A stretch of 64,000 nt of DNA from a virus. Lineage: Duplodnaviria > Heunggongvirae > Uroviricota > Caudoviricetes. Shown one piece after another: positions 9,419 through 64,000 of the stretch. The first letter of the stretch is position 1. Every line of letters starts with the position of its first letter. The notes beneath the pieces are model-generated. The model was not told where the DNA came from and did not search any database. It saw only the letters and a list, made by a program, of their open reading frames with translations. Location: the IMG/VR virus record IMGVR_UViG_3300008987_000001, one strand, 5' to 3'. A program made the position numbers and the translations under genes.

Positions 9419-9949
9419 TTATTTTTTTCGTCTCTTGTTTATTCTTTTGGTCAGTGGATCCATTCCATTTAACTGTTCAATCTTGTTAATTACTTTTCGT
9501 TGTCGCGTTGGCATGTATCGCAGACGTATCATGTTATCTATGTATGTGCGAAGATTAAAGTCTGGATCTTTCTTCTTGATATCGTCGATTAACAGGCAAT
9601 AGAACTTTGCAATCCGTTCTTCATTAAAGTTGTTCTCTACTACTGCAATGGATAATCGTTTCATGTAATACTCTAGGGAGAACATTGGGAGGGTGTGCTG
9701 ATAGCGTTGATACATACGGGTCTTGAAGTCACGAAGTATCTCATAGGATAGGTACTTTTTAACTATTTCAAGTTCTTCTGGGGTAGGTTCTAATCGTGAT
9801 AATGCACGATCAATAAGAATATTTTCGTATTCTGCATATTTCCAAGGATAAAAATGTTGGTCGAGTAGTTTATTGACGAATTGTTCTGGGATGATACCTT
9901 TTGCGACCATATCATACACATATTCGTCTTTAATGTTAACCATACTCAC
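9419..9949 (-). CDS. Hypothetical protein
   Basis: 176-aa ORF in an operon-like array. No recognisable motif. Confidence 0.3.
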   Translation of the reverse strand: MSMVNIKDEYVYDMVAKGIIPEQFVNKLLDQHFYPWKYAEYENILIDRALSRLEPTPEELEIVKKYLSYEILRDFKTRMYQRYQHTLPMFSLEYYMKRLSIAVVENNFNEERIAKFYCLLIDDIKKKDPDFNLRTYIDNMIRLRYMPTRQRKVINKIEQLNGMDPLTKRINKRRKK

Positions 9950-26807: not shown

Positions 26808-27410
26808 ATGTATTTATGTGGTTTTTGTGGAAATGAAATAGATTTGCATCACAGAGATCAATTATGTTCATGTGGTGTCCCATTTAGACAAGGAATAATA
26901 TACAAACATGTGATAAATTATAACAATCTATCTATATACAATACATCATCAACTGATATTATACATCAAAAATTTAAAGATCTCCAACAATACACTTGCT
27001 CAGAATATTATGATGATGCAACAGATCATGAAGTTATGCATCAAGATTTATGTAACTTAACATTCGAAAATGAATCATTCGACATGGTAATTACACAAGA
27101 TATTATCGAACATGTAATTGATCCATTTAAAGCACTCAATGAAATAAATAGAGTATTGAGACCTAATGGATTTCATTTATGGACAATTCCAATTGACGAA
27201 GATATTGAAACAGCATCATGTACATATGAACTTTATCATGGAGATCCATTAAGGGAATGTGGTATAAAGGTATATACACTATTTGGATTTGATATAATTG
27301 ATATGATACCAAACACATCAATAATTGAAAAATATATTATATTTGAAAAAGTAGAAAATTTAAATTACAATTTATATATTTTAAAAACTATAAAAACTCC
27401 TTGTGAATGA
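26808..27410 (+). CDS. SAM-dependent methyltransferase (Methyltransf_11/23-like)
   Basis: DMVITQDIIEHVIDPFKALNEINRVLRPNGFHLWTIP. Confidence 0.45.
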   Translation: MYLCGFCGNEIDLHHRDQLCSCGVPFRQGIIYKHVINYNNLSIYNTSSTDIIHQKFKDLQQYTCSEYYDDATDHEVMHQDLCNLTFENESFDMVITQDIIEHVIDPFKALNEINRVLRPNGFHLWTIPIDEDIETASCTYELYHGDPLRECGIKVYTLFGFDIIDMIPNTSIIEKYIIFEKVENLNYNLYILKTIKTPCE

Positions 27411-28401
27411 TGTCCTGGCATACTCCATCCAATGCTCTATTTATTGCATCATTGCGACAAAACTGTGGGCAGTCATTGTTGGGTACAGTATTAAACACTT
27501 CATACATTTGCTCACTTTTTAGCACATCAGTAATACTTTGCTCATTTAGATTACCAATGTGATATGCTTTGTTTTGTCTATGGTGGATACATGCCCACAT
27601 TTGATTATCTGCAGTAATGACCGTGTTAAAGTACATGCCATGACACCGTGTATAGGGACGTTCAATCTCACCTACATGATCATACTTGTGGGTTGATGCA
27701 CGGATATTCAGTTTTGGGAATAAATCTTGTCCTTGCTTTATATATTCACTTACATCATTACATTCGCCAGTGAATGGTCGTAATTGAGCAAAATCAACAT
27801 GTAGACTATCAGCACGCTCAAAGAAATCCATGATGCCTGATAAAGTAGATTCACCAGTCAAGTATCCAAGACCAACAGATGTAATAGATTCGCTCACTGC
27901 ACGTAGTTGCATTAACTCATCAACATTATCAATTACATGCCAAAACTCTTCTTCCTCCATGCCATGGGTTAACTTATACATTGCAGGTGTTCCAGCATCT
28001 AATGATACTCTAAAGTATGTACAGCAATCAAGTATAGCACATCGAACATAATCATTGCACATAGCAAGTCCATTAGAGTTAAGTCCAATACTGATACCTG
28101 CATTCTTGAACATGTATAGTGCTTTGACAAAGTGAGGACTCATCATTGGCTCTCCCCCACCACTAATAACCACTGACTGAACATTCAAATTGCTCATTTG
28201 ATCAACAATTGAAGTGATTTGTTCAAGAGTTAACTCTGCGCCATTCTCCTTTACTCCCACACATTTTGGACATCGATTGTTACACTTGTTAGTTAAATCT
28301 AACTCGAATGATATGAGGGTTTCATGACCATGCACATAATTGTGGATTTTATCCTGATACTGTAGGATTTTCTCATTGGCATTGAAGTTGTTTAATTTCA
28401 T
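27388..28401 (-). CDS. Radical-SAM enzyme (probably sugar-modifying; not NrdG-like)
   Basis: CNNRCPKC = CxxxCxxC at residues 39-46. 337 aa, embedded in the glycan cluster. Confidence 0.55.
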   Translation of the reverse strand: MKLNNFNANEKILQYQDKIHNYVHGHETLISFELDLTNKCNNRCPKCVGVKENGAELTLEQITSIVDQMSNLNVQSVVISGGGEPMMSPHFVKALYMFKNAGISIGLNSNGLAMCNDYVRCAILDCCTYFRVSLDAGTPAMYKLTHGMEEEEFWHVIDNVDELMQLRAVSESITSVGLGYLTGESTLSGIMDFFERADSLHVDFAQLRPFTGECNDVSEYIKQGQDLFPKLNIRASTHKYDHVGEIERPYTRCHGMYFNTVITADNQMWACIHHRQNKAYHIGNLNEQSITDVLKSEQMYEVFNTVPNNDCPQFCRNDAINRALDGVCQDIIHKEFL

Positions 28402-28934
28402 GAAAAATACACCGCATTGTCAAAATTTGGCCATGCTTTATCCTTTTCACTTAATTGCGGGGATGTTTCAAACTCAATACATGATAAGGGATTCACTCCA
28501 CGCTCATGAGTTGGCGCATACACATTATCCACCTTATATATAATCTCGGTATCATCCTCAAGAATATGAATGCCATGAGCAAATCCTCTTGGAACCCATA
28601 GAAGGGGTCCATCAGCAGTTAGTTTATATGAGCCGATTTCACCAAATGTTTTGGAATATTGTCGCATGTCCATGAAGTAATCAGTAAGGGAGCCACGTGT
28701 GCAACGAACCAACTTCCCCTGATCATATGGGTAGCGCTGATAATGCATACCACGGAATACACCTGCTTGTGAACGTGAATGATTTTCCTGGATGAAGTCA
28801 AGTCGAATTCCATTATTTAGGAATTCCTTCTCGACATATGATTCCATGAACCACCCACGATCATCACCAATCCGCTTTGGATAAATGATCTTAATATCAG
28901 GCAACTCTTCATGCCTATAAAAAGTGAAAGCCAT
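28398..28934 (-). CDS. rmlC: dTDP-4-dehydrorhamnose 3,5-epimerase (RmlC-type cupin)
   Basis: FRGMHYQ ... LWVPRGFAHGI cupin motifs. 178 aa. Confidence 0.6.
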   Translation of the reverse strand: MAFTFYRHEELPDIKIIYPKRIGDDRGWFMESYVEKEFLNNGIRLDFIQENHSRSQAGVFRGMHYQRYPYDQGKLVRCTRGSLTDYFMDMRQYSKTFGEIGSYKLTADGPLLWVPRGFAHGIHILEDDTEIIYKVDNVYAPTHERGVNPLSCIEFETSPQLSEKDKAWPNFDNAVYFS

Positions 28935-28955
28935 TATATAGTATATAAGTTAGAT

Positions 28956-30101
28956 CTATATAATTCTTCGTATCCAGTTAAGTCTTGTAACAATCTGTTT
29001 ATTTAATACTCGTTGATTAAAATTATTTAGAATATGCTCTTTACATTTATTTCCAAGCATTCTGGCGTATTGTTTATCATTCACCAATGATAGCATGTGC
29101 ATTGAAGCATGACCAATTATTGGATCTGCCCATAAAGATACTGGGTTATATAAACATTGTGATGTCATTGTTTTTATCATATTATAATCGACAAGCAATG
29201 CACATGAACTATCAGTAAATTCCATGGATCCTCCATAAGATGTGACAATAACAGGTTTCCCAAGATACATGGCTTCCATCATTCCAATACCCAGACCTTC
29301 AGATCGATGTAATGATACATAACAATCAGATGCATTTATAAGACCTAAAAATTCTGATTTATCTACAACACCTCGTATATACTTTATATTATTGTAACGC
29401 TTTATGTAATGTATAAATGGTGCTTCTTCAAATGCGAACATTTCACCAAACATTGATTTTATCACTAATTGCACATCTGCTCTATTCCCAAAAGCACTTA
29501 TGAACGAATCAACTACAGCATAAGGATTCTTTCTATCAATAGATCCATAATAATCAAAAGAATAAAAGAATGTAAATTTATTTGAATCCAGTCCATATTT
29601 TTTGTATATTGTGGGTGGTGAGCAAACATCAATTATATTTGTCTCTGGTGCATATGCAAGTTTATGTATTGGGATCCCACGGTGATCAAACTTTTTGAAT
29701 ACATCATAACAGAATTGTGAAAAGCACCATATCTCATCTACATAATTATATGCATCGGTCCATGGGAAATAATCTTCAAGTTCCCAGAACCATACTCCGA
29801 TTGTATACTCATCCTCAGAAATTTGATGGTGATTCACTATACTTATAGCAGATTCAGCCCCGCCAAGAATAACATTTATAGGATAATGATTTGGTTCAAT
29901 AAATGTTAATGTTGATTTAAATGGAGTTACGGTATGTGGAATATCATTATCAATGAGAGATTTATGAAGCACCCTTGCAATTTCCCCCATTCCATTATCA
30001 TGAAGAACTCCAGCGTATAAATCAACTCCGAATGAATTCCATTTATGTTTATTAAAAATAGAATTAGAAATTACAGAAATTGATTTATTTAAATGTAGCA
30101 T
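28956..30101 (-). CDS. Glycosyltransferase, GT-B fold (GT4-like)
   Basis: EGLGIGMMEAMYLGKPVIVTSYGGSMEF (E-x7-E motif region). Confidence 0.5.
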   Translation of the reverse strand: MLHLNKSISVISNSIFNKHKWNSFGVDLYAGVLHDNGMGEIARVLHKSLIDNDIPHTVTPFKSTLTFIEPNHYPINVILGGAESAISIVNHHQISEDEYTIGVWFWELEDYFPWTDAYNYVDEIWCFSQFCYDVFKKFDHRGIPIHKLAYAPETNIIDVCSPPTIYKKYGLDSNKFTFFYSFDYYGSIDRKNPYAVVDSFISAFGNRADVQLVIKSMFGEMFAFEEAPFIHYIKRYNNIKYIRGVVDKSEFLGLINASDCYVSLHRSEGLGIGMMEAMYLGKPVIVTSYGGSMEFTDSSCALLVDYNMIKTMTSQCLYNPVSLWADPIIGHASMHMLSLVNDKQYARMLGNKCKEHILNNFNQRVLNKQIVTRLNWIRRII

Positions 30102-31080
30102 TTATGAATCCACCCCACTTATTAATAAAATAACAACGTTCATTGTATTCTATGAGTTGCTTTTCAAGCGTTGTGTCATATCCACGGGTCTTTGATTCGT
30201 AATGATATAACTTGGCATATGGCGTATATAAAACCTTATAATTTGCCTGATTCACTTTCATGCACAGATCAATATCATTATATGCAATTGGTAAATTATC
30301 ATCCATTCCACCAAGATCCAAATATAATTCACGCTTTATTGCAACACATGCTCCAGTAACCGCTGGATATATCATTGGCTCATTTGTCCGAGGATAAATG
30401 TCACACTTATGAGAATTTACATGCATAAATCCACCAATCACTTCACTATATACAACCCCACAGTGCTGTATAGTATGGTCAGCAAATAACAATTTAGCAC
30501 CAGTCATTCCAATAGTTGGATCGTCTATCATTGGACCAACCAATTGTTCAATCCATGTAGGTTCAATAATTTCAGTATCATTATTCAGCATGATAATATA
30601 TTCACCAGAACAATGAGGTATCACGGCATTATGAATTGCTGCATAATTATACTCCAATGGATAATCAAATACCAGTATGTTATATGGGCAGTTATCAAGC
30701 CAATCAACGGTATATTCATCACTCTGATTATTCACCACTATAATTTCATAATTGTTATGGGTTGATGACGTTACTATAGATCCAATACACTTGTTTAGAT
30801 CTTTAAGATGATCTCTTGTTGGAATAACAATAGTGACTAGTGTATCATTTAGATCATATGATGGTACATTTTCAAATTTATACAACTCGCAATTCATAGG
30901 TATACTTCTAACTTTATATGCAATGTGATTCGAGATGTCAATCCATTCTTGTTTTTTAAATAATGGTCCAAGTAATCCTAATACAAATCCTCCAATTAAC
31001 ATTTTATTTTTCTGTGAAAATATATAATGTGTAAAGTACAATGACAATACTCCGTTAATATAATTCAACTTACTTATCAT
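30085..31080 (-). CDS. Glycosyltransferase family 2 (GT-A), N-terminal TM
   Basis: VTIVIPTRDHLKDLNKCIGSI ... IIMLNNDTEII (DxD). Confidence 0.5.
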   Translation of the reverse strand: MISKLNYINGVLSLYFTHYIFSQKNKMLIGGFVLGLLGPLFKKQEWIDISNHIAYKVRSIPMNCELYKFENVPSYDLNDTLVTIVIPTRDHLKDLNKCIGSIVTSSTHNNYEIIVVNNQSDEYTVDWLDNCPYNILVFDYPLEYNYAAIHNAVIPHCSGEYIIMLNNDTEIIEPTWIEQLVGPMIDDPTIGMTGAKLLFADHTIQHCGVVYSEVIGGFMHVNSHKCDIYPRTNEPMIYPAVTGACVAIKRELYLDLGGMDDNLPIAYNDIDLCMKVNQANYKVLYTPYAKLYHYESKTRGYDTTLEKQLIEYNERCYFINKWGGFINATFK

Positions 31081-31921
31081 GATTTATATAGTCCTTTAAT
31101 GCTCGTTCCCAATATGGTGTATATATAATATGCGATGCCATTGATGTATTACATTGTCCATTCGGTGACTCAAATGGTTCAATTTCTATAGATAAATTTG
31201 CTAATTCTTTTATTTTACAAGCAAACTCATACCAGGAACAAGATCCGGCATTATTTAAATGAAATGTTCCTCTAAAATTATTACGTACAAGTAAATTCAA
31301 CGCACCAGTTGCATCCCGACAATACGTTGGACTCATAATAATATTATCTGGTATCGAAAGATCATCTATAGCATGCAACACTTTCTCTATGAAATTTGGA
31401 CCCTTGTTACTTGATCCTTTGAGACCGAAGAGACTGGACACTCTCCCAATAATATAATTGTCAGTGACATCCATTATGGCTTGTTCACCACACACCTTAC
31501 TCCTCCCATATTCATTGAGAGGTGCTACAGGATCGTCCTCATAATATGGAGAGCCTTTCCTTCCATCAAATACATAGTCAGTGGAGAAGTGAATAAATGT
31601 AGCATCAATATCATTACAAGTGTATGCCATGGACTTTGGCACCTCACAGTTCATTAGGTGTGCTAACCGTGGGTTATTCTCACACCCATCAACATCATGA
31701 TATGCTGTACAATTAATCACAATGGATGGCCCCACTTCACTTATATATTTATATACAACTTCAGCATCCCTGACATCAAGATCGTGGTGACTTGGAGCAA
31801 TTGCATCAAATGCCTTGACAATCTCACACCCCAATTGTCCCGAACCACCAAATACCAAAACACGTGACATTATATAATAGTTAGTTTTCGTATATATAAA
31901 TCTAATTGTTATACAACCCAC
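31070..31921 (-). CDS. rmlD: dTDP-4-dehydrorhamnose reductase (RmlD-type short-chain reductase)
   Basis: VLVFGGSGQLG Rossmann motif. Family-typical length 283 aa. Confidence 0.55.
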   Translation of the reverse strand: MGCITIRFIYTKTNYYIMSRVLVFGGSGQLGCEIVKAFDAIAPSHHDLDVRDAEVVYKYISEVGPSIVINCTAYHDVDGCENNPRLAHLMNCEVPKSMAYTCNDIDATFIHFSTDYVFDGRKGSPYYEDDPVAPLNEYGRSKVCGEQAIMDVTDNYIIGRVSSLFGLKGSSNKGPNFIEKVLHAIDDLSIPDNIIMSPTYCRDATGALNLLVRNNFRGTFHLNNAGSCSWYEFACKIKELANLSIEIEPFESPNGQCNTSMASHIIYTPYWERALKDYINHDK

Positions 31922-34800: not shown

Positions 34801-35185
34801 ATAATGCTCGTGGGGGTTTTGATCATTGCATTATAGCACATGGTTTCACAGGGTAATACAGTGAGTAATTCACCATACACACTCCATGTGGTCAGGCCAT
34901 CTGACTTAAACTGGGTTGGTGATTTGATACACTGGTGATTTAGGTGAAACCCTTGGTGGGAATTTAACCCACATACTTGCGTCTATCACCAGTTCTGTGA
35001 CGTTGCTGCAGTATTCTTTCACATGCTTAATTACAAGGGCATGTGGATTGTCAATGTGATTCCTTGTCTATGCTCCTACGGGTGGAATCAACCCTGCGAG
35101 TCACAGCCATAGACCGCCGTATCCCGCCGAGTCGTTTCACGGGATAATTACACACTCCAACTGAATGGACTAGCGACAGTGTGGA

Positions 35186-35266
35186 TAATCGGTGCAGGAA
35201 TCGAACCTGCGACCCAATTCGGGATGACCTTTTCAGTCACGACTTTACCAATTCATCCAACCGATT
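35186..35266 (-). tRNA. tRNA-like gene, 81 nt, class-II architecture (perfect 7-bp acceptor stem AATCGGT/ACCGATT, T arm GCAGG-TTCGATT-CCTGC, variable-arm hairpin CCC-GAATT-GGG); anticodon not confidently assigned
   Basis: Hand folding of the reverse complement. Followed by a TCCA trailer. Confidence 0.5.
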
Positions 35267-35527
35267 ATTGCATTTTTTATCTGTCACTACCTAGGATAAC
35301 AGTCCTGTTATGCTTCAGGATAACCGACGGTTGGAATTGAACCAACTTTGCACCCTACTTGTCTCATCGATTACATATTATGGTGTGACCCATAAACATG
35401 TCAGACCTATCGTGGTTAGGCCAAGTTTGGTTTCGACCAACACCGTTGATCCCCTGTTTTCCTTCAGGGAGGCTTCTGGAGGTTGTTTTCACCTCTTTTA
35501 AGTTTGTTTATACCAGCCACGATCTGG

Positions 35528-51668: not shown

Positions 51669-54411
51669 ACAATCTAATAGTCAACTGCGTGGTATATAAA
51701 TGTTTCTACTTGGGATTTGAGAAACGTGCTTTACGCAATTATATAATTCGTATTATAAATTTGATAAGGGTGTTTATAGATATGGGTAATATACATTTAA
51801 AGGTGTCGAATTGATATTTGGACAAAGTGGAGTGGATAGTTAATACACAGTGAGATATATGGTGTGCGCAGAGGGTTATAACCAATCAATAAAGGTGATC
51901 TTGTTTGTGTCGGGCATAAAGTGTATGTGCAATGTAGTCAACTTTTCACGGATATCTTCAATATAACTAGACAATTCGGTTATAAGCATACTAGTTACTT
52001 GTCCTTCGATATTAATCAATGGTGGATTTGGTGTTAAATATATCTCCGTTGGTACGTTTAGATATTCAAGATCTCGTGTAATATATGGTGTGTTGTCATC
52101 TGTACACCATTCAATTTTAAATTTCATAATATATTGACTCCAATTGTTTATGATCAGGGAACTTTTTCTAACCAACAGCCGTTGATACTTGTTCCATAGT
52201 TTAAAATACCTTTACGATTGAATTTAAAAAGCGATGCATAAATTTGCTTATCAACTACATTATATGTTTTACAGATATACTCTAAATGAGATGGTATCCA
52301 TACAACATTATATAATCCAGCATCGATATATAAACTTAATAAATATTGTTCTGCATCTGGATTCATTTTATGTAACCCCACATTTTAGTATAATCACGTT
52401 CAAATAAATCACAAGGAATTGTTAAATCACAACTAAATATATTTGCACTTTCATGATATTCAATACGTCGCTTAACAACTTCTGGATTTATTAAACAAAG
52501 ATTATCCAAGTTACTTGTAAAATGCTTACAAATGGAACATGAATGTTTTTCAACACTTGGTCGTATAGAGGGTGTGAATGGCATATTATCATCAATATGC
52601 TCTTCTCCTCCAAAATGCCACATTCCCATGGTTACACCCCCATTAAATTTTGTGAAAGTTCTAATGAATGTTGTCGTTCCAATAGTTTTAATCGTTCGTT
52701 TAATTCATTTACATTTGTTGCCAATTCTCTAAATGCGGGTGCTATTTGTGTGTTAATATGTTCAACTATTTGGTTAATGGATTTTGTATGTGGGTCTTCG
52801 TATTTTCCACCAATTTTAAATCCAAATAATTGTTCAATTATATCGAACTCTTCCACATATTTACCTTTTTCAAAGTGTCCCATGGTTATACCTCTATATC
52901 TTTAAACATATTTGGATTTAATACTATTAAACTACTTCCTTGGGTATAAACTCGTCCACATGAACATTTGGTATTTTCACGACAGATAAATATACGGGTT
53001 TCACATTTTGAACAGGTAACAGTATATGGTTCAACCCATACCATCTCATAAGGTATTTGTGCAACCTTCATCCAATCATTGATGTTTTTAAATTTCATAA
53101 TCGATCTACCCTACTTAATACAGGAACATCTCGCCATCAGATACACAGTGGATTAAGATTGGTTTATTAACAAGTCGAATTAATAGATCTTTAAGCCACA
53201 TTGTTGCGTGATATGTAGCATCTCCCTTTGCATCATCCATAGTTATATCATCAAACATATAATCCGTGTATATAAATTGTGGACTGATGTCTATGTAATC
53301 ACTTGAACCACGATATCGAGGTGTTTGTACCACTGCATATGTCGGTCCACTATATACTAAATAGAATTGATTATCATCAACTGATATAGCATTGTTGTCA
53401 GGAGTAATTAGGTATGTCATAATGTAATTCCTTTGTTATTACTTTCATCACATTTCATCATCTCTGGCATAAGTATATGTTACTACTTTATTACAGTTTA
53501 TGCATCTTGGTTCTTCACCATATACATGGATTGCATCAACGATTCCACAGGTAGGACACGTATAGACTCGATGTGCTGACTGAGCACCACGAGCCAAAGT
53601 TTGAAATAAATCATGATTAGTGATCATATACATAATAATGATTTAATTTCTTCATATCCTTCCATTTGCCATGCAAATGAATCTACTACACGACGACCCT
53701 TTTTAGTAAATTGCCATTTGTTATACCGACGATTATGACTCATCCCATCACCGAGGTAAAATTCTCCAGATGGTTCAAGGATGTTTTGAGTAGTAAGCAT
53801 AGTTATACGTTGTGGTGGAAACACGTGGTTAATGTCCCGTGTATAAAACGGGTTATTACCAACAGTTCTGTATAACTTTACTAACTCATCTTTATAATTG
53901 TCAAGCTTCTTTCTACATCTTCCCATGGTTATATATTAGGTGGGATTGAATTTATACTTGATCATTCATCAGTATCATCCTTATCATTACCATAGAAATA
54001 CTTACAATGTATTGATTTATCATCGATTCCAGAGTGGAATTTGCATGCTCTACATAATCGCAATGGAACATGTAATTCTGCTAAAACACACCAAATAAAT
54101 GGTTCAATTGGTTCAGCATGATATATTGTATTAGTTGTCATACATTATCACATTTCATTTGGCAAAAATCATCTGGATCTTCATCAATGTATATATCTCT
54201 GCCAATTGCAAGGCATCTCCCAACTGGTTCATTTTCATCATTATCATAAATTTTATAATGTAAACAATTAATACATATCATTCTACATCATCCTTTAATA
54301 TCCATTCTAAAATAGATAATTGTCCTCTTAATACTTTGATATCTGATTTCTTTTGGACATTGCCATATAATAGTGCAAATTTAATAAGTTCTAATTTGGG
54401 TTTCATAATGA

Positions 54412-54906
54412 TCACTCATTCCACTCTATATACTTGCCATCGGGGGTTACTCGTTCATTAAAGAATGTTAAGTATTCTTCATGAGGTAATGGGGTGTTGG
54501 TTGTGGTGATATGTTCATGTTCATGTAGGGCAAATTCTTTACAGGCGTCAATCCACTGTTTAACTTCTTCACTATCATTCTGCCATTCCATCTTGCGAAT
54601 CATTTGATTAATGCTATGATTCATTCGCTTAAAGAATGAAAGATAGATCTCGTAATTTGGATCACCAGTGTTAAGTGTTACTTGGATTGGTTTGTTTACT
54701 TCATCAGTGGCCATAAACTCATCGTAATCAACAGTCCAGCCACCTAGAGGGTTAGAATACCAAGCGAGTTGATTTCTAATCTTTTGTTTCATATCCCAGA
54801 GTGTACGTGCATCATTTGAGATTCGAGTGTTGTATATGCCCCAATATGCACACCATCCTTCATGAAAGAATGGACATGGATTGTGATCACAAAAGTAATT
54901 ACGCAT
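54412..54906 (-). CDS. Hypothetical protein (164 aa)
   Basis: ORF only. Confidence 0.25.
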   Translation of the reverse strand: MRNYFCDHNPCPFFHEGWCAYWGIYNTRISNDARTLWDMKQKIRNQLAWYSNPLGGWTVDYDEFMATDEVNKPIQVTLNTGDPNYEIYLSFFKRMNHSINQMIRKMEWQNDSEEVKQWIDACKEFALHEHEHITTTNTPLPHEEYLTFFNERVTPDGKYIEWNE

Positions 54907-56846
54907 GATTATCTATTCCCACTTTAAACTCCACTTTGAATGATTTTTACAACCATGATATTCATCAATTGATAATGGTATGATATACCTGCTACATATG
55001 CATGGATGAACACCTAATCCATCAGAATATAAACAGGTGTCACATGTAACCAGACCCTCTTTATAATTGATAATCCATTTAATAAATGATTCTAACATAA
55101 TATATCACCTTCATGGTAATGGATCCTCATATAGATAATCAACTCGATCAGTTAATATGTTAATTTGTTTTTCCAACTCGGTAATACGCTTGTTTAATTT
55201 ATTAAGTTGTGTGGATACCTGCTCAAAATTTTTATCTACTATTTGCAGTGCTTCACTCATTTTCACTTCTAAAGCCATTGCTTCAAACATATTAATTACA
55301 CCACCACTGTACATTCTGCATCTATAATTTTATCTCCATCCATTTTAAGGCAGTAATGAATCTCAAATTTTTCACCATCTTTAATTGTGATTGGATCCTT
55401 TGCAATAAATCTAATACAATTTTCCATTATATACCTCGGAGGATGCCAGTTGTTTTGTCATATACCACTTTTGCCACACTATTATTCCATGCATGGAACT
55501 CATCTTCCTTGCCAACAATATACCCAGTAACAAATGATGGAAGTGATACATGTGTACCATCTGCAAAATACCGATCATAACCATCTGATGCCATACGATG
55601 CGTAGAGTATACTTCCATGTATGGTTGATCATCATTATGTCCAAATTGGTAATATATGCTCCAACCACATTGTAAAATGTGAGTGTATTGCTTGAGTTCG
55701 AAGGTTGTCATGTCAAATTTAATCTTCCAATGACTGAATTGTTCTGTTAATTTGTCATGGAAGTAACATGCGATGTGATAATCTTCGTCAGTTGAGATGG
55801 GGTTTATTGATTGCTCATTAGTCACGATTTTCACACCTAACAACACCATTATCAATAATCATTTAACACCAAATAATACACAATATGAATCATCTACCAA
55901 ATGTAACTTATCTAAATATTCATATCCTAGTGCAATTGGTTCAGAATATGCACTACAAATATCACCATTTTCAAGATATCCATGATCACAATGTTGACCA
56001 GTCAATGGACAAAATACCATGATGCATCACCCCAATGGACATTTCAATGGTTGAATCGTGATATCATCAATGATCATTGCTCTGAATAGTATAGTTGATT
56101 CTTCAAGCATTGCCATGTATGGACGTCGTGATGCCTTACAATAGTAAATGATACCTGGAACATTGCTTTCTTTTCCACTATACATTCGTTCACTTCCTAA
56201 ATGATCACAGAGTTTGCAACAAGTATCAATCATATATACCTCTCAACGTTTAATAGATGCCCCATTATTGCTGTACGTTTTTGTTTCTTTAAGTCTTTTA
56301 TTTTTAACTCAATCAACTTAACAATTTCAACATCAGATAGGTCATCCATTTGTAATATTTTCACAACAGATACTTTAATTCCATCTACAATGATTGATAC
56401 TTCTTGAGCAAAATGAGTTTTTGTAATTACTAAAACAAGATTCGGCCATTTAGATTGTAAATATTCAACGAGTTTTTCACGATGTATCTGTGTATGATAC
56501 TGCGCTTCCAACCTACGATATTCAGGGGTATCAAATAATGACATTATGTGGGCTCCTTAATGTTTAGATGTGTTCCATCACTATGTTAGATACTCTTCCA
56601 ATTTTAAACATATCATAGGTAAAATGATAATTTGGATCAATTGTGTAAATATAATACATATCCTCCCCGTAAATTGGAAAATGTGCAATTGATGCTTTTA
56701 TCGCAGCAGTGGTTCTAAATAATTTAGCATCTAAAATATTTTTAGAGAAATTATTACTACCTTTACTATAATATTGTTCACCGTTATAATCAATATATAA
56801 TATGTATCGATGTAATTGCGAATCATTAACCATGATATTACACTCC

Positions 56847-57326
56847 TTAACGTTCAGTTGTACTCCACCTTTCTGGATATGGACAATTCATTGGCTCTAC
56901 TGTTGGATCCTCAATGATAGTGTAGGTAAATGTGATAAATTGCCTATGATCATCAATTGATGGATATTGCAGAGGCTTCTTACAATAATGACATTCCTTG
57001 TAATCATCCTTGTAATGAGTGTATAGGTAACAACCCACACACCCGTGATTTCCATCTACACGTTTTATAGTGCTCTTGGCATTTTTCAATCGTTTTTCAA
57101 GTTCGTCATTTGAGATTGTGCCATATTTAGGGCTAGCACATTTGATTATTGGTATATTATCTAAACATTCTTCGGGCATATAATCATCTGCAGAATTAAG
57201 TAAATTTTCCCAATCTTTACGTTTAATCACTTCAAATTTCGGACTTCCACTTATTATAGGTATGTTATATTCTCCATCACACATAATTAGATCTCCTTTA
57301 ATAGTGGATATCCCTGTTCTTTCCAT
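56847..57326 (-). CDS. Cys/His-rich zinc-binding protein
   Basis: GCVGCYLYTHYKDDYKECHYCKK. Confidence 0.3.
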   Translation of the reverse strand: MERTGISTIKGDLIMCDGEYNIPIISGSPKFEVIKRKDWENLLNSADDYMPEECLDNIPIIKCASPKYGTISNDELEKRLKNAKSTIKRVDGNHGCVGCYLYTHYKDDYKECHYCKKPLQYPSIDDHRQFITFTYTIIEDPTVEPMNCPYPERWSTTER

Positions 57327-58110
57327 TTTTGATCTACATAACTGATCACATCATCGGGGATTTTTGTTTCATCTTCTACATAACGAGTCCTACAGATATA
57401 TTTCAATCTAAAAAGTGTTTTTGTCTCAAAATCTTCAGTCTCATCATTAGATATACAAATAGTAAACAATTCATCTACATCTTTAGGGTGCTTCCATATC
57501 AACCGTGTAAATTGTTTGTATCGTGAATCAAAGGATTCAGTAATCACATACCAATAAGAATATTTACGTTTAGGCATAATACATCACTCTAATTCTCCTA
57601 TACAATCATGTTTAGGTTTATGCATCCAATCAGACCATGGAAGTGATTCAGGGAGTAGTAAACTCAATATATGTGGATAGATTTTTTCTCTGAAACATTT
57701 AGAACAGATATCAGGTTCAAAGTAATATATCGAACTATCATCCGGCCACGATTCACCATGTTCATAAGAGATAGTTACATCACGAATTAACACTGGCATT
57801 GATGAATATCTGGTTTCTTTGTATATGTTTTCGCCACAAATATCACACGCGGTAAGTGTTTTTTCCTTTGCAGTTTTAGTAACTTCTATATAATGATCCA
57901 TAATTCATTCCTTATATATCTGATAAATGTTATAATCAACAAATAATCCAATTATGATACCAATTAATAATCCAAACCACGGTAATCCAATATTCGATAA
58001 TACAATTTCTAACATCAATCCTATACCAATAACTGATGCAACAAATACAAGTAACATTGTAAAAATTGTATATACTATAAAACTATAATCATCACACATA
58101 GTATACACCG

Positions 58111-59127
58111 TTAAACATATTGATCTACCTCATAAATATAATCATACTTTTTTGCTTTATACATAGACCAGTCGATGTTATCTTTAATCATTGAACGAAA
58201 TATCGTACTACTTACATGTGGATATTCTGTCATTAAATACATGATATCGCAAGTTAATCCCATATCACGATAGATGCTTGCAAGGTTCTTTTCATATGTT
58301 AGATCATTCTGATCACGGATACCCCGAACAAGTGTTATGTCTCCACCATTTTGACACTGAAATGTTTTAATTAAGTCTGTAAGTGATCCTGTAAACACAA
58401 CTATCCGGTGAAATGGTAAGGCTCTACGAAGTTCTTTAATATCAGTGCCTTCTGGAACTGCTACTATTAATTGATCAAAGTGTTTATCGGCTTGCTCTAA
58501 TACTGATAGATGACCAATGTGGAATGGATTAAATGAACCAGCATACACACCAATATGGGGTTTATAAGATTGAAAGAATTCAATGTTATGTTGAAATATC
58601 TGATTATCCAGTTGAAGATCTGTTACACCATCTCGAATTAGGTTACGTAAGAAATCATTACGATTTGAAACTAACTCACCCCATGGAACAAATTGATATT
58701 CCTTAAGAATTCTAATCCCATCTGAAATTGATCTACCCCCATCATGGATGAAATACCATAAGTCGAGAGTTCGGATAACTTGAACTGCTTCCCAGATAGA
58801 ATCATCTACTTTACAGGTATATGTTTTAGGATCAGTATAATGAATTAATGATTTGATAATTGACTTATCATCCTCATTCATTTGTGGGCATAGCGTATCT
58901 ACTAGGTCTGCTGATCGTGCTTCGTTATTAGATTTTCTCGGATCGTATATTGCATCGTGTAAATCTACTGCAATACGAATAAGATGCCAATAGCGTTCAG
59001 ATACATTCCATTCATGGGACATAAGCATAGTATTCATAAATGATACATGCATGATGTTATGATAGTATCTATGTGGTTCATGATAACGATCTATAACATC
59101 AGGGACATCTTTTAATGTAACTATCAT
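58111..59127 (-). CDS. HD-domain phosphohydrolase fused to a nicotinamide/nicotinate mononucleotide adenylyltransferase (NMNAT/NadD-like) domain
   Basis: N-terminal H...HD (IMHVSF ... AVDLHDAIYD). C-terminal VYAGSFNPFHIGHLSVL, the GxFxPxHxGH nucleotidyltransferase motif. Confidence 0.5.
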   Translation of the reverse strand: MIVTLKDVPDVIDRYHEPHRYYHNIMHVSFMNTMLMSHEWNVSERYWHLIRIAVDLHDAIYDPRKSNNEARSADLVDTLCPQMNEDDKSIIKSLIHYTDPKTYTCKVDDSIWEAVQVIRTLDLWYFIHDGGRSISDGIRILKEYQFVPWGELVSNRNDFLRNLIRDGVTDLQLDNQIFQHNIEFFQSYKPHIGVYAGSFNPFHIGHLSVLEQADKHFDQLIVAVPEGTDIKELRRALPFHRIVVFTGSLTDLIKTFQCQNGGDITLVRGIRDQNDLTYEKNLASIYRDMGLTCDIMYLMTEYPHVSSTIFRSMIKDNIDWSMYKAKKYDYIYEVDQYV

Positions 59128-60219
59128 ATCATCATTCCATAAAATACGGATCCAATATCATTTTCAATTCATCATATTTCATGTGGAAACGACATGGGCA
59201 TTTTTGTACAATTGGATGTGTCAATGGATATGACCAGAGTTCCTTTGCAGTTCGTTCTCCATATATTACATAATCCATGGCAGCCATTGTACAACTATAA
59301 TTATCATTTGTCCATACACAGGTGTTACAGGGTCGATGATATCGTTCTGCAATAGGCAATATCTCAATCATAATATTACATCCTATCAATTAATAAGAAT
59401 AATATGAGCATCAATGTAGCACCAATGGCAATACCAAGTCCAAATGCACTACCTACGGCACCATATACATTGACACCCTCACATAACCACACACCAGTAT
59501 CTGTCAAGTGACAATAGTAACAACTATCACTGACACTGGTATAAATTGGATTTGTAATATTCATAAGGTAGCCACCCCGAGTTTAATCAATGATATCATA
59601 ATGATGAATGTCATGCAACATACTAACCAAAATCGGCGGGGATCCCACCATTCGAGGGTGATATCAGTGAGTGAATCTAATATACATGCCACACTATATA
59701 ATGGACTTGATAGTTAAAAAAGGTTAGTATACAAGATCAGATATAGTTCTTCACTTTACCATCTTCAATATCATAGCGTTTATTGTCTATTGTAATGTCT
59801 CCTGTTGCATCTTGATACATATCACGGATAAGTTCATTGATATAATCTTCATCAAGATCATCATCAATAGTATAGTTCACGTACATTTCAATTAATACAT
59901 GTTTAAGTGTCATGATTGGATACCTTCTTTAAGTTTAATTATCTCATCAATTGTGGTGTAATACTTGCACTTTGGATAATCAATTGGGTAGGCTGGTAGC
60001 ATTGCTTTTCCTGGCCAGTGTGCAAGTGTCGGCATTCTATGTGCTCTACATGAATAATCTGGACATCTATCATATAATATGCAATTATTACAGCACTCCG
60101 ATGGCTCAATAATGGTATAGCCTTCGGGTATTGGGTTAATAGATAGATCGAGGTGTGAAGGATCTACATACTTATACTTCCCTGATTGTGGGGGTGTAAA
60201 GATGTAGTTTAGGATCTTA

Positions 60220-61599
60220 TCAAACATATGACATTATCCTATTACGAATAGTATCTAAATCCTCTTCGATTAGTAATTTACCATTTTCATAGACTAATGG
60301 TAAATTAAACTTACCAGGTTTACTTTCCTTCCCAATAGTAGTTTTGTTTACATCTATCCACTCATTGTTTCGTTTGATGCAACTTGCTTTGATTGCCCAA
60401 CGATTCGTATCACGATTATGTTTTTGGAGTAATGATCCACCACTACCAAAGATAATGTTACTTGGTGCAAAGTGATGAATACTCACTACCTCATGGAGTA
60501 TTTGACTTATCGTATGGGCATCTATACCATCACCATAGATGACGCCGACACGTGAATTTAATACTTTGTAACCACGTTCATTTTTACTCCCACCATATGC
60601 ATCCCATAGATAGTTGAGAATTTTTACAGATACTTTAACTGGATTCCCAGTATCTGGCCTGATTACGCACTTGTCCCGACGATTAAGGATCAATTCTTTG
60701 AGATCGTTGCAGAAATATTGCTTCACTGCATGTTCCCAGTCATACGAATCACATACTAGACTAATTACTGTTGCATTACCAAATCGCTTATCAGATTCTT
60801 CAATTATATGTCTATAGGCTTCGCATTCATGTTCTTGACCCCAACTAGTAATTGTGCTATGTTCTGCAGCAATAACCGATCCACCACAAACATCACTATT
60901 GTAATACCAACGGGCTTTTTCTATAGATGGAATATTATCTGTACCTTGGAAGATTAATAAATGACCTAGCCCACATAATTCGGCACTGGTTAAACTTGAT
61001 GCACCACGAAGTCCAAAGTCATTTAAGTGAAATGGACTTACCTGTTCACCTGCTACATCTGCATACTTTTTGATTCGTTTGTATATATCATAAGATATGG
61101 TTGCAGTATTGGACATAGCATAACAATGCATGAGTAATGACTCTACGTAATTAGTTAACCATGGAACTTGTTCATCTGTATTCTCAATTGCCAACACTGG
61201 AGTTCCTGGTTTAACTATAGTTCCTTCTGGTAATGCATAAATACGCAGGGGTAATGATCCACTATGTTCATTAATAATGTGATTCCAACCATCACGATTG
61301 AAAAAGTTATTACTGCCCATAGAATTTATTACATGTTCAGCCTCTGATACCATTTCACGAGTTAGATAGGTGTGTATAAAATTGTAATGTTTTAATATGA
61401 ATTGTAATCCACACCATACAATGTCCTCATACTGTGCTCCAACACGCGGTTCCATGTAACTATACACTACTTGAGTATCTGGGGGATACTGAAAATAGTG
61501 GGTTGCTTTGTAATAATCAGTTAGAGTTATAAAATTTCTATCTCTCATACGTCTCATCAACTTGTGATTGTGTAAGGGATTACATAGAGTATTACTCAT
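60220..61599 (-). CDS. Nicotinamide phosphoribosyltransferase (NAMPT/NadV family)
   Basis: N-terminal LTDYYKATHYFQYP ... VYSYMEPR typical of NAMPT/PncB. 459 aa. Confidence 0.55.
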   Translation of the reverse strand: MSNTLCNPLHNHKLMRRMRDRNFITLTDYYKATHYFQYPPDTQVVYSYMEPRVGAQYEDIVWCGLQFILKHYNFIHTYLTREMVSEAEHVINSMGSNNFFNRDGWNHIINEHSGSLPLRIYALPEGTIVKPGTPVLAIENTDEQVPWLTNYVESLLMHCYAMSNTATISYDIYKRIKKYADVAGEQVSPFHLNDFGLRGASSLTSAELCGLGHLLIFQGTDNIPSIEKARWYYNSDVCGGSVIAAEHSTITSWGQEHECEAYRHIIEESDKRFGNATVISLVCDSYDWEHAVKQYFCNDLKELILNRRDKCVIRPDTGNPVKVSVKILNYLWDAYGGSKNERGYKVLNSRVGVIYGDGIDAHTISQILHEVVSIHHFAPSNIIFGSGGSLLQKHNRDTNRWAIKASCIKRNNEWIDVNKTTIGKESKPGKFNLPLVYENGKLLIEEDLDTIRNRIMSYV

Positions 61600-62123
61600 T
61601 TATACAGTTCCTTATCATAATGATTGCAAATAATTTGCTCTAATAAATTTCTACTATCAGTAGTGAAGTGCATTTTATCCTTGTTCTTTATATAATAGTC
61701 ATACACACTTATCCATCCTCCAGTTGGATTTGTACCTTGTGCTCTACCTGCACCGCGCCAATCGCATAACATTTCATGAATATATACTAATGGTATGTCA
61801 AGATATCGAACTTCACCTTTATCAGTTACCATAGTCCAATATTGCCAATGATGTTTGTTGGTATGTTGATGGTGAAGCCATGCAAGATCAAATGCTAAAT
61901 CTCCAGTTTGAGCAGCATCATAATAACCAGAGTTATCACGTACAAATTTACCCTTACCGTTTTTTAGGTAAAAGTATCGAGCATATGCTTTGATACTTGA
62001 AAGAGTGAATTTGTTAATGTCATGGACTAACCCACGCCAATATAATTTTTCCTTGAAACAGTAATACATTACCCAAAACTTATGTTTAGTTAAATATGAT
62101 AGATATTTAACATAGTGATTCAT
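61596..62123 (-). CDS. Hypothetical protein translationally coupled to NAMPT
   Basis: Four-nucleotide overlap with the NAMPT start. Confidence 0.3.
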   Translation of the reverse strand: MNHYVKYLSYLTKHKFWVMYYCFKEKLYWRGLVHDINKFTLSSIKAYARYFYLKNGKGKFVRDNSGYYDAAQTGDLAFDLAWLHHQHTNKHHWQYWTMVTDKGEVRYLDIPLVYIHEMLCDWRGAGRAQGTNPTGGWISVYDYYIKNKDKMHFTTDSRNLLEQIICNHYDKELYK

Positions 62124-64000
62124 ATATAAAAATGGATGTTAAAGTAATTATATGTTACGGAATGTAAAGATATGATTTAAGGATTTCACTAACCAATCAA
62201 TCACCCTTGTTGGATATTCGCTTGCAAAATTGCACTGGTAATGATTCATATTGTTTATCATTCAGAATATTCTCTTCGATGTGTTTGAGAACATTTGCTT
62301 TGCATTCATCCAATACTTCCCATTTAATGGGATTGTAAGTTATTAATGTATGATCAAATGCATTTTGATGATATACAGTTGTGTTGCAAATAACGAGTTT
62401 TCGAATACTATCTTCACTAGTATTTATTTTACCTTTTATCATAATATAACTAGTAAAATTATTAGATTCAATCATTAATTCAATGTATTCATCATTATAT
62501 ATTATTTTACTACATTTTATGGATAATCTACTATCTCCATTATCATACATGATGTTAAGTTGATTATAGATACGCTCAATATACTCCATATCGGATTTAA
62601 CCTGTGGTGGAATGATATCTTTTGGTGATTCTGTTACTTTCTTTTTAAAAATATTAAACATGATAAGTCCTCATAAATTAATTAATCACCTAGACTTGCT
62701 TAATCAATGGCATTATTTAATGGACACCATTCAGGTATTTCATTTAATGGATCTACTCCTCTACCCGGATACATACTATAGGGAATATATGCACCTTTAA
62801 TGAATTGTCCATCGTATCCTACCCCTTTATGTCTACACACTCTGCCAAACTCACAATACTTACAATCATAACAGGATGAAATTTGTAATAGTTTAATCAT
62901 GCTGCATTACATACTCCATAGATAATACATTAATATGCTAAATGCTATAGTTAATGTGATGATTATTCCAAATAAACGAATAATATCATCCATAGCGTCG
63001 ATCCCTGACATTCTTTGCATCATTGATTCGTTTAGCGATCTCATTGATACGTTGGATATCCTCAGGAGTTAGATCACCTATACTTGATTCATCCACAGCA
63101 TCACATGATAAATCATCATTCATTTATTTCATCCCTAAACAATCATCAGTCCAATCATCATTGATGACACGATTGTAATCATCATATGCACACTCACAGG
63201 TTGCTACATGTTTACATCGATCACAAAGATAATTTACTTTAGTTGTATCATCTAACATGATTAACTCTCTTTACATTCAATGCAACATTGTTTCATATAT
63301 TCAAAAGGAGTAGTAAGATCTATCCCTCTGGGATCAATTCCACTCTTACGAAATGTTTCTGCCATACGCCAATCTTTAGATATTCTATCAATCATTTCAA
63401 CTAATTGTTTTCGTGAATATTTATATTTAGACATGTTTAACACCCATTAATGTTATTACTCATAACTCATTACACATCCCATTTTTAAGATATCATTTCC
63501 TTTTAAGGTTCGCACAACACCTGTATAATTACATCTTACATATACCCCCGGACCATCTCGAAAATAATTACTAGCATTATAAAACCGTTCAACACAATAA
63601 ATACAATCTTCACATACATTCAAAACATCAATCATTATACACCACACTTGTGGATCATATTCTTACTTCTTACGTAATTTGGCACTACCTTACCACACCT
63701 TTCACATCTATGATGTCCATCCATTCCATCGGACCAAAATATTTCACTAAATGTTGGAGACCGTGGATGATAATAACAGTTAAATGGATCACATTGCATG
63801 GTGTACTCCTAATGATGCTATAACTTTATCAATGAATCGATCATTTCTCCATGCCATAATAAAATTAAATAAAAATAATAATATATTCATTATTGTACAT
63901 CCAATAATTAGTCCTTCAGATAACCACATTATTATTATACTCCTAACATTTTTTGCATTTCTTCATCAGTATAACGGGCTTTACATGGTGTAGTTGGATA

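Follow-up and report, generated by a model that had tools for sequence, protein, structure and literature searches.

Phage rebuilding of NAD+ is a current topic in phage defense research, and three pathways, NARP1, NARP2, and NARP3, have been described so far. NARP2 combines a phage Nampt with a NadM-Nudix Nmnat, as in Vibrio phage KVP40, and among phages that carry a KVP40-type Nampt, 94% are reported to encode an Nmnat as well (Osterman et al., 10.1101/2024.02.11.579819). NARP1 consists of Adps and Namat and is also described in a phosphatase-extended form (10.64898/2026.01.28.702374); its methods screen NARP1 operons for Macro-domain proteins, so the accessory phosphatase is apparently of the Macro-domain type and not an HD protein. 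A different pairing of activities is found in the mycoplasma NadD-YqeK fusion, in which the YqeK HD domain hydrolyzes erroneous dinucleotide products (PMC9426524). Here, we analyzed a 64-kb stretch of the genome of a large, uncultured Caudoviricetes phage (the window) in which a NARP2-type Nampt has lost its usual NMNAT-Nudix neighbor and is translationally coupled to the gene for an HD-like DUF5662 protein. The locus raises the question of which route leads from NMN to NAD+ in such phages.

The genes of interest are listed in Table 1. The three open reading frames singled out in an initial annotation of this DNA (the DUF5662 and NAMPT genes and a fusion gene at 58111-59127) were recovered at exactly their coordinates, all on the minus strand. 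DUF5662, NAMPT, orf105, and orf58 form a single translationally coupled block with start/stop overlaps throughout, including a 4-nt overlap between the DUF5662 stop and the NAMPT start. The DUF5662 gene had been described as coupled to and downstream of NAMPT; the coupling holds, but on the coding strand the gene lies upstream. The fusion gene belongs to a second block with its own start/stop overlaps, preceded by a 170-nt gap, and the hairpin in this gap is the sole terminator-like site between 57500 and 63000. Searches of Pfam, PHROG, and PADLOC returned no match for orf105.

Table 1. Features of the NAMPT block, the fusion block, and the gap between them
Feature	Position	Strand	Remarks
DUF5662 protein, 175 aa, divergent HD-superfamily fold (predicted)	61596..62123	-	directly 5' of NAMPT
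NAMPT/NadV, 459 aa, NARP2-type clade	60220..61599	-	domains, PRK09198, phrog_448
orf105, Cys-rich	59910..60227	-	start overlaps NAMPT stop by 8 nt; ORF list and sequence
orf58, small acidic protein, last in NAMPT block	59737..59913	-	overlaps orf105 by 4 nt
Terminator-like hairpin	59634..59650	-	within ~170-nt gap between NAMPT block and fusion block
orf62, predicted membrane protein	59376..59564	-	coupled to fusion gene
orf85, Cys-rich	59132..59389	-	coupled to fusion gene
Fusion N-domain, aa 1-186, HD superfamily, class I phosphodiesterase-like (predicted)	58570..59127	-	
Fusion C-domain, aa 187-338, HIGH-motif adenylyltransferase, closest to PPAT/CoaD branch	58111..58569	-	
orf67, small predicted membrane protein	57905..58108	-	2 nt 3' of fusion gene

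The initial annotation recognized a NAMPT in the longest of these frames, and our searches bear this out. The protein contains TDYYKATHYFQYP and matches Pfam NAMPT_N (PF18127, 1e-26) and phrog_448; the NAPRTase profile proposed as a check (PF04095) matches at 1e-40. On NCBIfam PRK09198 (NF006629) it scores 480.8 bits, above the cut-off of 405, and the scores of the NAMPT domain, nucleotidyltransferase, and phosphohydrolase profiles in this region are all far beyond chance. We tested the catalytic and substrate columns, namely AEHST with the phospho-His, the Asp of GTD, RPD, GDG, and GSGG, which we take to correspond to human NAMPT H247, D219, R311, and others. All are kept: G219, D221, E246, H247, S248, T249, R314, P315, D316, G356, D357, G387, G388, R396, and D397 are invariant in a five-sequence alignment. 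The best GenBank phage relatives adjoin NMNAT/Nudix genes, and a NadM-Nudix gene lies directly upstream of NAMPT in 51 of the 80 nearest viral relatives in IMG/VR. To judge by sequence, the protein is a bona fide nicotinamide phosphoribosyltransferase, nearest to the NARP2-type phage Nampt genes, and NAD salvage through it is supported and already known.

From its family membership and conserved active-site columns, the NAMPT would make NMN from nicotinamide and PRPP. A tblastn and motif scan of the 64-kb window, which is part of the genome, found no NMNAT of the NadM, NadR, or NadD type, and a motif scan for the Nudix box (GX5EX7REUXEEXGU) was negative throughout the window. Conversion of NMN to NAD+ would then be left to a host NMNAT or to a phage NMNAT encoded outside the window. 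The NARP1 pathway was also considered for this NAMPT and rejected: tblastn with E. coli Prs as query found no adjacent Adps and, more broadly, neither the window nor any of the 80 nearest NAMPT loci yielded a Prs/Adps-like gene.

The fusion gene encodes 338 amino acids. The initial annotation read it as an HD domain joined to a nucleotidyltransferase, and this architecture stands, with two domains, invariant HD ligands, and the HIGH motif. It also read the C-domain as an NMN adenylyltransferase, and here our results differ. The domain has the motifs GSFNPFHIGH, RGIRxxxDxxYE, and VSST, in that order; besides the first of these, the window has no HIGH-type nucleotidyltransferase motif. Residues 192-335 match the CTP_transf_like profile, another check proposed at the outset, at 4e-12. 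On the CoaD model (TIGR01510) it scores 69.6 bits, and no NMNAT model exceeds about 30 bits: TIGR01527 gives 30.1 (cut-off, 181.2), TIGR00482 gives 27.8 over the first 28 residues only (cut-off, 112.45), and the NadM-Nudix models give ∼20 to 23 (cut-offs, 397 to 409). CoaD is the best family for all 33 aligned homologs, with a best E value of 4.8e-30 compared to ∼1e-7 for NMNAT models. In sequence matches to the PDB, PPATs span the whole C-domain and NMNATs mostly just the N-terminal motif; by fold, the closest solved structures are PPATs. An identity as NadD, NadM, or NadR is therefore not supported, the curated cut-offs being missed by the window protein and by all 33 homologs. The initial annotation had itself allowed that the domain might classify elsewhere, as a cytidylyltransferase for sugars, and in spirit this is the outcome, with CoaD as the other substrate class.

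Motifs of the NMNAT type are present, both HxGH (GSFNPFHIGH; E. coli CoaD has TxGH) and the ISxTxxR type (HVSSTIFR). These do not discriminate between the two families, because PPATs have T/HxGH and ISSS, and the Helicobacter pylori PPAT has Arg133. The residues corresponding to E. coli CoaD H18, R88, G89, R91, D95, Y98, E99, S128, and S129 are kept in 27 to 33 of the 33 homologs and mostly in all of them (H18, R91, S128, and S129 in 33/33; R88 in 32/33), and at position 130 every sequence has either Ser or Thr. At the same time, 69.6 bits is below the curated TIGR01510 cut-off of 103.3, and several substrate-side positions vary. The loop with Lys42, a ligand of the phosphopantetheine 4'-phosphate, is deleted in the subclade of the window protein (Lys42 is kept in 24/33), and at Thr10, a 4'-phosphate ligand in PPAT, all 33 members have the conservative substitution Ser. 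Conservation is also lacking at the positions that match N106 and E134 of E. coli CoaD, which we take to be pantetheine contacts. Pro8 is replaced by Ala in 31/33 family members. Mutational data from H. pylori PPAT bear on both groups of residues: activity was abolished by mutation of residues that include H18, R88, R91, and S128-S130, and P8A inactivates the enzyme (PMC12784347). On sequence, the C-domain is closest to the PPAT/CoaD branch of adenylyltransferases and not to the NMNAT branch, and it most likely converts ATP and 4'-phosphopantetheine to dephospho-CoA and PPi.

The N-domain is more divergent. Residues 12-164 match phrog_19425 ("phosphohydrolase," 5e-15), and the ligands H27, H57-D58, and D122 are invariant across 33 homologs. 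The window protein has no match to Pfam HD (PF01966), and 11 of 26 family members match it weakly (best E value, 8.5e-4); it is through these weak matches and the predicted fold that the domain is recognized as HD, with both the H...HD...D ligands and the all-helical HD fold present. It is modeled as a divergent HD domain, and class I cyclic-nucleotide phosphodiesterases (PDEs) come nearest to its predicted fold. Compared to the catalytic domains of PDE7A, PDE2, PDE8, and PDEB1, it is about half the size, with only 12 to 17% identity, and a conserved Tyr of the fusion family (FHDxxYDP) takes the place of the second His in the PDE motif HDxxH. The ACP phosphodiesterase AcpH was tried as an identity and rejected (hhalign of the family profile against E. 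coli AcpH; probability, 0.2%). By analogy with the YqeK HD domain fused to NadD, the most likely role of the HD hydrolase is to supply, recycle, or proofread either the phospho-substrate or the dinucleotide product. The N-domain has no specific Pfam model, and NCBI sources give the fusion a generic name only.

For the DUF5662 protein, the initial annotation suggested a check for Nudix or ADP-ribose-processing folds. The protein is DUF5662 by profile, lacks a Nudix box, and has HD domains as its top fold matches, which are weak; it is neither a Nudix hydrolase, an identity we reject, nor a known ADP-ribose-processing fold. Modeling suggests a small divergent HD-fold protein, possibly a metal-dependent hydrolase. 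DUF5662 precedes NAMPT in the window and in relatives L086 and L087, and in L225 it comes right after a NARP1-like pair (Prs-like plus NAMPT-like). A DUF5662 protein identical to this one is on record for a 133-kb contig; the window thus covers just a part of the genome.

Are the NAMPT and the fusion parts of one pathway? The closest fusion relative (L251, 91% identical) shares the fusion block, including the orf62 region upstream, and synteny with it breaks at ∼59746 (tblastx). No NAMPT or DUF5662 lies in the 2.4 kb upstream of its fusion gene, and tblastx against window positions 59750-62123 gave no match. The next (L258, 80% identical) has no NAMPT within 6 kb. Conversely, DUF5662 and NAMPT stay together in L085, L086, and L087, where the fusion is not nearby. 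These distributions, together with the gap and its hairpin, argue for separate modules. We give about an even chance to the reading of the region as two auxiliary-metabolism modules that are neighbors yet distinct, an NAMPT/NMN cassette and a PPAT-branch fusion with an HD domain. Elsewhere, the gene for dephospho-CoA kinase (CoaE) immediately adjoins the nucleotidyltransferase in three relatives (L021, L063, and L082), and CoaE is the commonest Pfam family among the 149 nearest neighbors of 30 fusion loci. The fusion is also common among housekeeping genes on chromosomal contigs of Bacteroidota and Lentisphaerota, many copies having no NAMPT within 6 kb. No publication on the fusion family was found in the literature searched.

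The initial annotation's idea can be restated as a PPAT-fold C-domain recruited as the phage NMNAT, which with NAMPT would give a two-step NAD+ salvage, a NARP2 variant in which HD replaces Nudix. This we consider unlikely. It would account for the missing NadM-Nudix partner in a window with no other HIGH-motif nucleotidyltransferase, NMNAT candidate, or Nudix box, and the frequency of Nmnat in phages with KVP40-type Nampt speaks for it, as do the invariant HxGH, the lost Lys42 loop, and the variable positions aligned to N106 and E134. In three lineages, the fusion and NAMPT genes also share a strand and lie ∼1 kb apart (0.8 to 1.4 kb): the window, L004, and L012, the latter two fusions being 38% and 29% identical to that of the window. 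However, NMNAT profiles reach no more than 30 bits against cut-offs of 112 to 181 where every family member prefers CoaD, and the CoaE neighbors, the closest fusion relatives, and the bacterial copies without nearby NAMPT all count against it. The fusion is present in only 1 of the 29 NAMPT loci without NadM among the 80 nearest. Two phages (L077 and L078) carry a stand-alone nucleotidyltransferase of this type along with a canonical NadM-Nudix NMNAT adjoining NAMPT; thus, the fusion-type enzyme does not appear to be an NMNAT substitute. The suggestion that HD stands in for Nudix is weakened as well, since the fusion lies outside the NAMPT block. Also unlikely, in our view, is that the PPAT-like domain adenylylates another phospho-substrate (ribose 5-phosphate, a sugar phosphate, or a cofactor precursor) and is functionally neither PPAT nor NMNAT. 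The protein falls below every curated equivalog cut-off, its substrate-side residues differ from those of CoaD, and fused and stand-alone viral copies share a distinct GSFNPFHxGH subfamily. Moreover, stand-alone copies often have Prs immediately 3' (+93 to +385 nt), as in L034, L068, L075/76, and L077, an arrangement more in keeping with PRPP/NAD metabolism than with synthesis of CoA. Nothing positive points to any particular alternative substrate, though, and CoaE adjacency and the CoaD-first ranking favor the simpler reading as PPAT.

The HD folds suggest yet another role, in which the PDE-like domain, DUF5662, or both hydrolyze immune signals or NAD+ breakdown products and feed rebuilding by NAMPT, much as in phosphatase-extended NARP1; candidates would be cyclic ADPR isomers, ADPR-1''-phosphate, and cyclic mononucleotides. 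We hold this to be quite improbable. In distant HD relatives, the fusion partner is a domain named "Pycsar effector" in the source or a nucleotide cyclase domain (P0238-P0244), the placement of DUF5662 beside NAMPT genes and the NARP1-like pair is consistent with such a role, and accessory hydrolases in NAD reconstitution have precedent in a 2026 RES/Adpp preprint and an RyR-domain preprint. Yet NAMPT is nearby in only 2 of 80 DUF5662 loci and 2 of 30 fusion loci, bacterial fusion copies sit among housekeeping genes, PADLOC returned no matches, and the fusion of a PDE-like domain to an adenylyltransferase is left unexplained. A very unlikely combination of these ideas would make DUF5662 and the fusion an undescribed NAD+-reconstitution variant, with the hydrolases turning NAD+-derived defense products or signals into usable precursors and the CoaD-fold enzyme, in place of NadM, NadR, or NadD, adenylylating NMN.

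The family of HD(PDE-like)-PPAT-like fusions is widespread, with members in phages, Bacteroidota, and Lentisphaerota, and its substrate would tell whether phages boost CoA in addition to NAD+ or have recruited a CoaD-fold enzyme to another dinucleotide. A practical lesson is that the GxFxPxHxGH motif by itself is insufficient for an NMNAT call. Compared to known systems, the locus shares with NARP2 (KVP40 NadV/NatV) a full-length NAMPT-family enzyme of the NARP2-type clade, but the slot upstream of NAMPT, where NMNAT-Nudix is usual, holds DUF5662, and the window has neither a NadM/NadR/NadD-type NMNAT nor a Nudix box. Like phosphatase-extended NARP1, it couples an NAMPT-family gene to a putative hydrolase, here DUF5662; unlike NARP1, it has no Prs/Adps homolog, and its NAMPT groups with NARP2-type Nampt. 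The C-domain resembles bacterial CoaD/PPAT (TIGR01510; PDB 4nah, 1b6t, and 8xsk) in its best profile, sequence, and fold matches and in keeping His18, Arg88, Arg91, and Ser128-130, but it is fused to an N-terminal HD domain, with no CoaE nearby in the window. Finally, the fusion and NadD-YqeK each unite a HIGH-motif adenylyltransferase and an HD phosphohydrolase in one polypeptide; in the window protein the order is reversed, with HD at the N terminus, the HD domain is PDE-like and not YqeK (COG1713), and the nucleotidyltransferase belongs with the CoaD branch instead of NadD.

The nicotinamide phosphoribosyltransferase (NAMPT) hallmarks reported in the initial annotation proved sound, and its coordinates for the three ORFs, all on the minus strand, were exact (see table). 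The 459-aa NAMPT product, which includes TDYYKATHYFQYP, has NAMPT_N (1e-26) and NAPRTase (1e-40) domains, matches phrog_448 at 3e-128, and scores 480.8 bits against the NCBIfam equivalog PRK09198, passing the curated cut-off of 405. In an alignment of the window NAMPT with four viral relatives, the AEHST, GTD, RPD, GDG, and GSGG columns, which match active-site residues of human NAMPT, are invariant. The best GenBank phage relatives are ∼40% identical and adjoin bifunctional NMN adenylyltransferase (NMNAT)/Nudix genes. IMG/VR relatives were retrieved with an alignment query, as a single-protein query gave none, and a NadM-Nudix gene lies directly upstream in 51 of the nearest 80. Adjacency of NAMPT and NadM-Nudix is the NARP2 arrangement (Osterman et al., bioRxiv 10.1101/2024.02.11.579819). 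No gene resembling ribose-phosphate pyrophosphokinase (Prs) or Adps was found in the window or in the 80 nearest NAMPT loci which, together with the NadM-Nudix neighbors of its relatives, argues that the window NAMPT is a NARP2-type Nampt, not a NARP1 Namat.

The small ORF next to NAMPT is coupled to it as predicted, by a 4-nt overlap, but it is not downstream; on the coding strand it is the first gene, before NAMPT. Its 175-aa product belongs to PF18907 (DUF5662; 8.5e-34), a large family (714 matches), and residues H34, D35, K38, H85, H91, H92, E117, and D121 are invariant across 39 homologs. A general partnership with NAMPT was ruled out, with NAMPT nearby in just 2 of 80 viral DUF5662 loci. 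One of the two, L225, has a NARP1-like pair followed by DUF5662; its Prs-like gene (24% identity to E. coli Prs) is possibly an Adps, judging by sequence. A specific functional link of DUF5662 to NAD salvage is possible. Our literature search found no paper mentioning DUF5662 or COG4339.

Features of the window and of related loci
Feature	Position	Strand	Remark
DUF5662 protein	61596-62123	-	175 aa
NAMPT	60220-61599	-	459 aa
HD-nucleotidyltransferase fusion	58111-59127	-	338 aa
Fusion N-domain	aa 1-186	-	invariant R20, H23, H27, H57, D58, N68, E69, D122, E143
Fusion C-domain	aa 187-338	-	HIGH-motif nucleotidyltransferase
Block 1, coding-strand order	DUF5662 (62123-61596), NAMPT, orf105, orf58	-	start/stop overlaps of 4, 8, and 4 nt
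Inter-block gap	∼170 nt	-	hairpin 59650-59634
Block 2, coding-strand order	orf62, orf85, fusion, orf67	-	overlapping or 2-4 nt spacing
GAF + PAS protein	16517-17560	-	347 aa; GAF at 2.5e-11
Anaerobic ribonucleotide reductase NrdD	19655-22696	-	1013 aa; endonuclease-like insert inside
Radical-SAM/glycosyltransferase cluster	27388-31921	-	radical-SAM protein, 178-aa ORF, two glycosyltransferases, nucleotide-sugar epimerase
tRNA-Phe	35182-35267	-	86 nt; unusual anticodon AAA (ARAGORN)
Small, densely packed ORFs	54000-64000	-	extended series, many Cys-rich
Cys-rich small ORFs, examples	54138-54281, 54913-55098, 57584-57901, 59910-60227, 62700-62900	-	CxxC pairs
CoaE neighbor, L021			directly downstream of fusion
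CoaE neighbor, L063			directly downstream of fusion-like gene
CoaE neighbor, L082			directly upstream of stand-alone nucleotidyltransferase copy
L225	7783-8505 Prs-like, 8504-9772 NAMPT-like, 10001-10480 DUF5662		NARP1-like pair, then DUF5662
Bacterial fusion loci	L255-L337		chromosomal gene of many Bacteroidota and Lentisphaerota; examples, L273 (Rhodocytophaga aerolata) and L323 (Bacteroidia chromosome)

The joining of an HD domain to a nucleotidyltransferase in the fusion product, which includes GSFNPFHIGHL, is both real and recurrent. A search across 5.8 billion proteins recovered 36 full-length homologs, an IMG/VR scan gave 30 nonredundant full-length viral loci and 50 stand-alone copies of the C-domain, and the AlphaFold model is confident (pLDDT 92.5, pTM 0.89). 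The C-domain had been assigned to NMNAT, and profile searches did not support this assignment: CoaD (phosphopantetheine adenylyltransferase, PPAT) is the top profile for all 33 aligned family members. For the window C-domain, TIGR01510 (CoaD) gives 69.6 bits over the full domain length, short of the curated threshold (103.3 bits); the best NMNAT model reaches 30 bits, and most others cover the N-terminal motif only. PPATs make up 33 of the top 35 PDB sequence matches, which run end to end and include the RGxR...D..YE and ISSS motifs, and all of the top 50 Foldseek matches. His18, Arg88, Gly89, Arg91, Asp95, Tyr98, Glu99, Ser128, and Ser129 (E. coli CoaD numbering) are kept in 27 to 33 of the 33 members, most of them in every one. 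In Helicobacter pylori PPAT, mutating His18, Arg88, Arg91, and Ser128-130, among other residues, abolished activity (PMC12784347). Every comparison places the C-domain on the PPAT/CoaD branch, but it is an atypical CoaD: besides the low score, it has HxGH where E. coli CoaD has TxGH and Ala at the Pro8 position, and the window subclade has lost the Lys42-bearing loop.

The N-domain of the window fusion has no Pfam match, and 11 of 26 homologs match PF01966 weakly. We considered whether it might be an AcpH-like ACP phosphodiesterase that provides the PPAT domain with 4'-phosphopantetheine; it is not homologous to AcpH of E. coli, and such a supply role remains as an analogy only. Distant relatives of the HD domain (P0238-P0244) are fused to an adenylate/guanylate cyclase domain or to PF18967, a domain labeled "Pycsar system effector family protein" in one source. 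These fusions hint that the HD clade handles cyclic nucleotides.

NAMPT and the fusion lie in different gene blocks, and the hairpin between these is the sole terminator-like one in 5.5 kb. In the closest relative, L251, whose fusion is 91% identical, similarity to the window begins at 59746 and continues downstream across the fusion block; neither NAMPT nor DUF5662 is present in the 2.4 kb upstream of its fusion gene. NAMPT is likewise absent within 6 kb in L258 (CAZCND010000004.1; fusion 80% identical), a 40-kb contig from a "Candidatus Saccharibacteria" MAG that is probably a related-phage contig binned into a bacterial genome. Two loci with 63% identical NAMPT, L086 and L087, carry DUF5662 directly upstream of it and no fusion within 10 kb. 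In another relative, L085, the order is NAMPT, a radical-SAM gene, then DUF5662; a close copy of that contig (126 kb) has a fusion, P0004, with NAMPT absent within 8 kb. This block layout and synteny indicate that the NAMPT-DUF5662 pair is one module and the fusion another, separable from each other and adjacent here by happenstance.

A Pfam tally of the 149 nearest neighbors of the 30 viral fusion loci has CoaE as the most frequent family (3), then NADAR, Nudix, RNA ligase, and others (2 each), with a single NAMPT. By tblastn with E. coli CoaE, a dephospho-CoA kinase gene sits directly beside the nucleotidyltransferase in three loci. This kinase catalyzes the following step in the CoA pathway. 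For stand-alone copies, the gene directly downstream is often a true Prs (36 to 41% identity to the E. coli enzyme), and NAMPT sometimes lies a few kilobases off. In L034, L068, L075/L076, and L077, the stand-alone "GSFNPFHxGH" PPAT-like gene is at ∼10001 and Prs at +93 to +385 nt; the pairing also occurs in L047/L049 and L078.

The fusion is also common in bacteria, as shown by searching with an N-domain profile and by scanning 185,579 species genomes. Hosts include Victivallales, Lentisphaeria, and many Bacteroidota, the isolate R. aerolata among them, and the copies lie on megabase contigs with housekeeping genes around. The fusion is therefore neither an innovation of phages nor bound to NAMPT. 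We looked to operon partners as a guide to function, and the conserved neighbors (M16 peptidases, directly upstream in 39 loci; S8 protease; adenylosuccinate lyase; methylmalonyl-CoA mutase) were uninformative.

The best-supported reading of the whole, in which our confidence is about evenly balanced, is that the NAMPT cassette would make NMN and the fusion would be an independent PPAT-branch adenylyltransferase with a PDE-like HD hydrolase. NMN would be converted to NAD+ by the host NMNAT or by a phage gene beyond the window. The C-domain would, from its sequence affinities, most likely form dephospho-CoA, and the HD domain may serve in supply, recycling, or proofreading of a substrate or product, by analogy with a documented case in which the HD domain of YqeK is joined to NadD (PMC9426524).

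Three other readings are less favored. The PPAT-like domain could act on another substrate, which we consider unlikely. Quite unlikely, given the CoaD profile matches, is the original proposal that the C-domain is the phage NMNAT, despite several points in its favor: the window offers no alternative candidate for NMNAT, conservation does not extend to residues on the phosphopantetheine side, and the closeness of NAMPT and fusion is repeated in three lineages, the window, L004, and L012 (fusions of the latter two 38% and 29% identical to that of the window), with both genes on one strand and ∼1 kb apart (0.8 to 1.4 kb). As a general NMNAT substitute in NAMPT loci without adjacent NadM, the fusion or stand-alone gene was rejected: 1 of 29 such loci carries the fusion, and in L077 and L078 a NadM-Nudix NMNAT adjoins NAMPT alongside the stand-alone gene, so the PPAT-like enzyme is not the NMNAT there. 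Less probable still is that the HD domain of the fusion, DUF5662, or both serve as anti-defense signal hydrolases; none of the seven region proteins matched in PADLOC.

The window comes from a large phage not sequenced before; positions 58000-62200 gave no megablast match among 50,697 GenBank phage records. Its products include a DNA polymerase, NrdD, one protein resembling thymidylate kinase and another with a thymidylate synthase domain, as well as three tRNAs, the tRNA-Phe neighboring tRNA-Gln(UUG) and tRNA-Leu(CAA). GAF plus PAS is a small-molecule sensor architecture uncommon for phage. In L085, the NrdD homolog matches Intein_splicing, the DNA polymerase is likewise intein-bearing, and a similar radical-SAM/glycosyltransferase cluster directly adjoins NAMPT and DUF5662. 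None of the small Cys-rich ORFs in 54000-64000 has a family assignment; the 57584-57901 product matches a ZZ zinc finger weakly.

An HD-CoaD fusion was described in no paper found by our literature search, and the HD(PDE-like)-PPAT-like family is uncharacterized and broadly distributed. NAMPT in phages and NAD salvage in two steps were known before; what is new here is a NARP2-type Nampt with a coupled HD-like DUF5662 in place of the usual NMNAT-Nudix neighbor.
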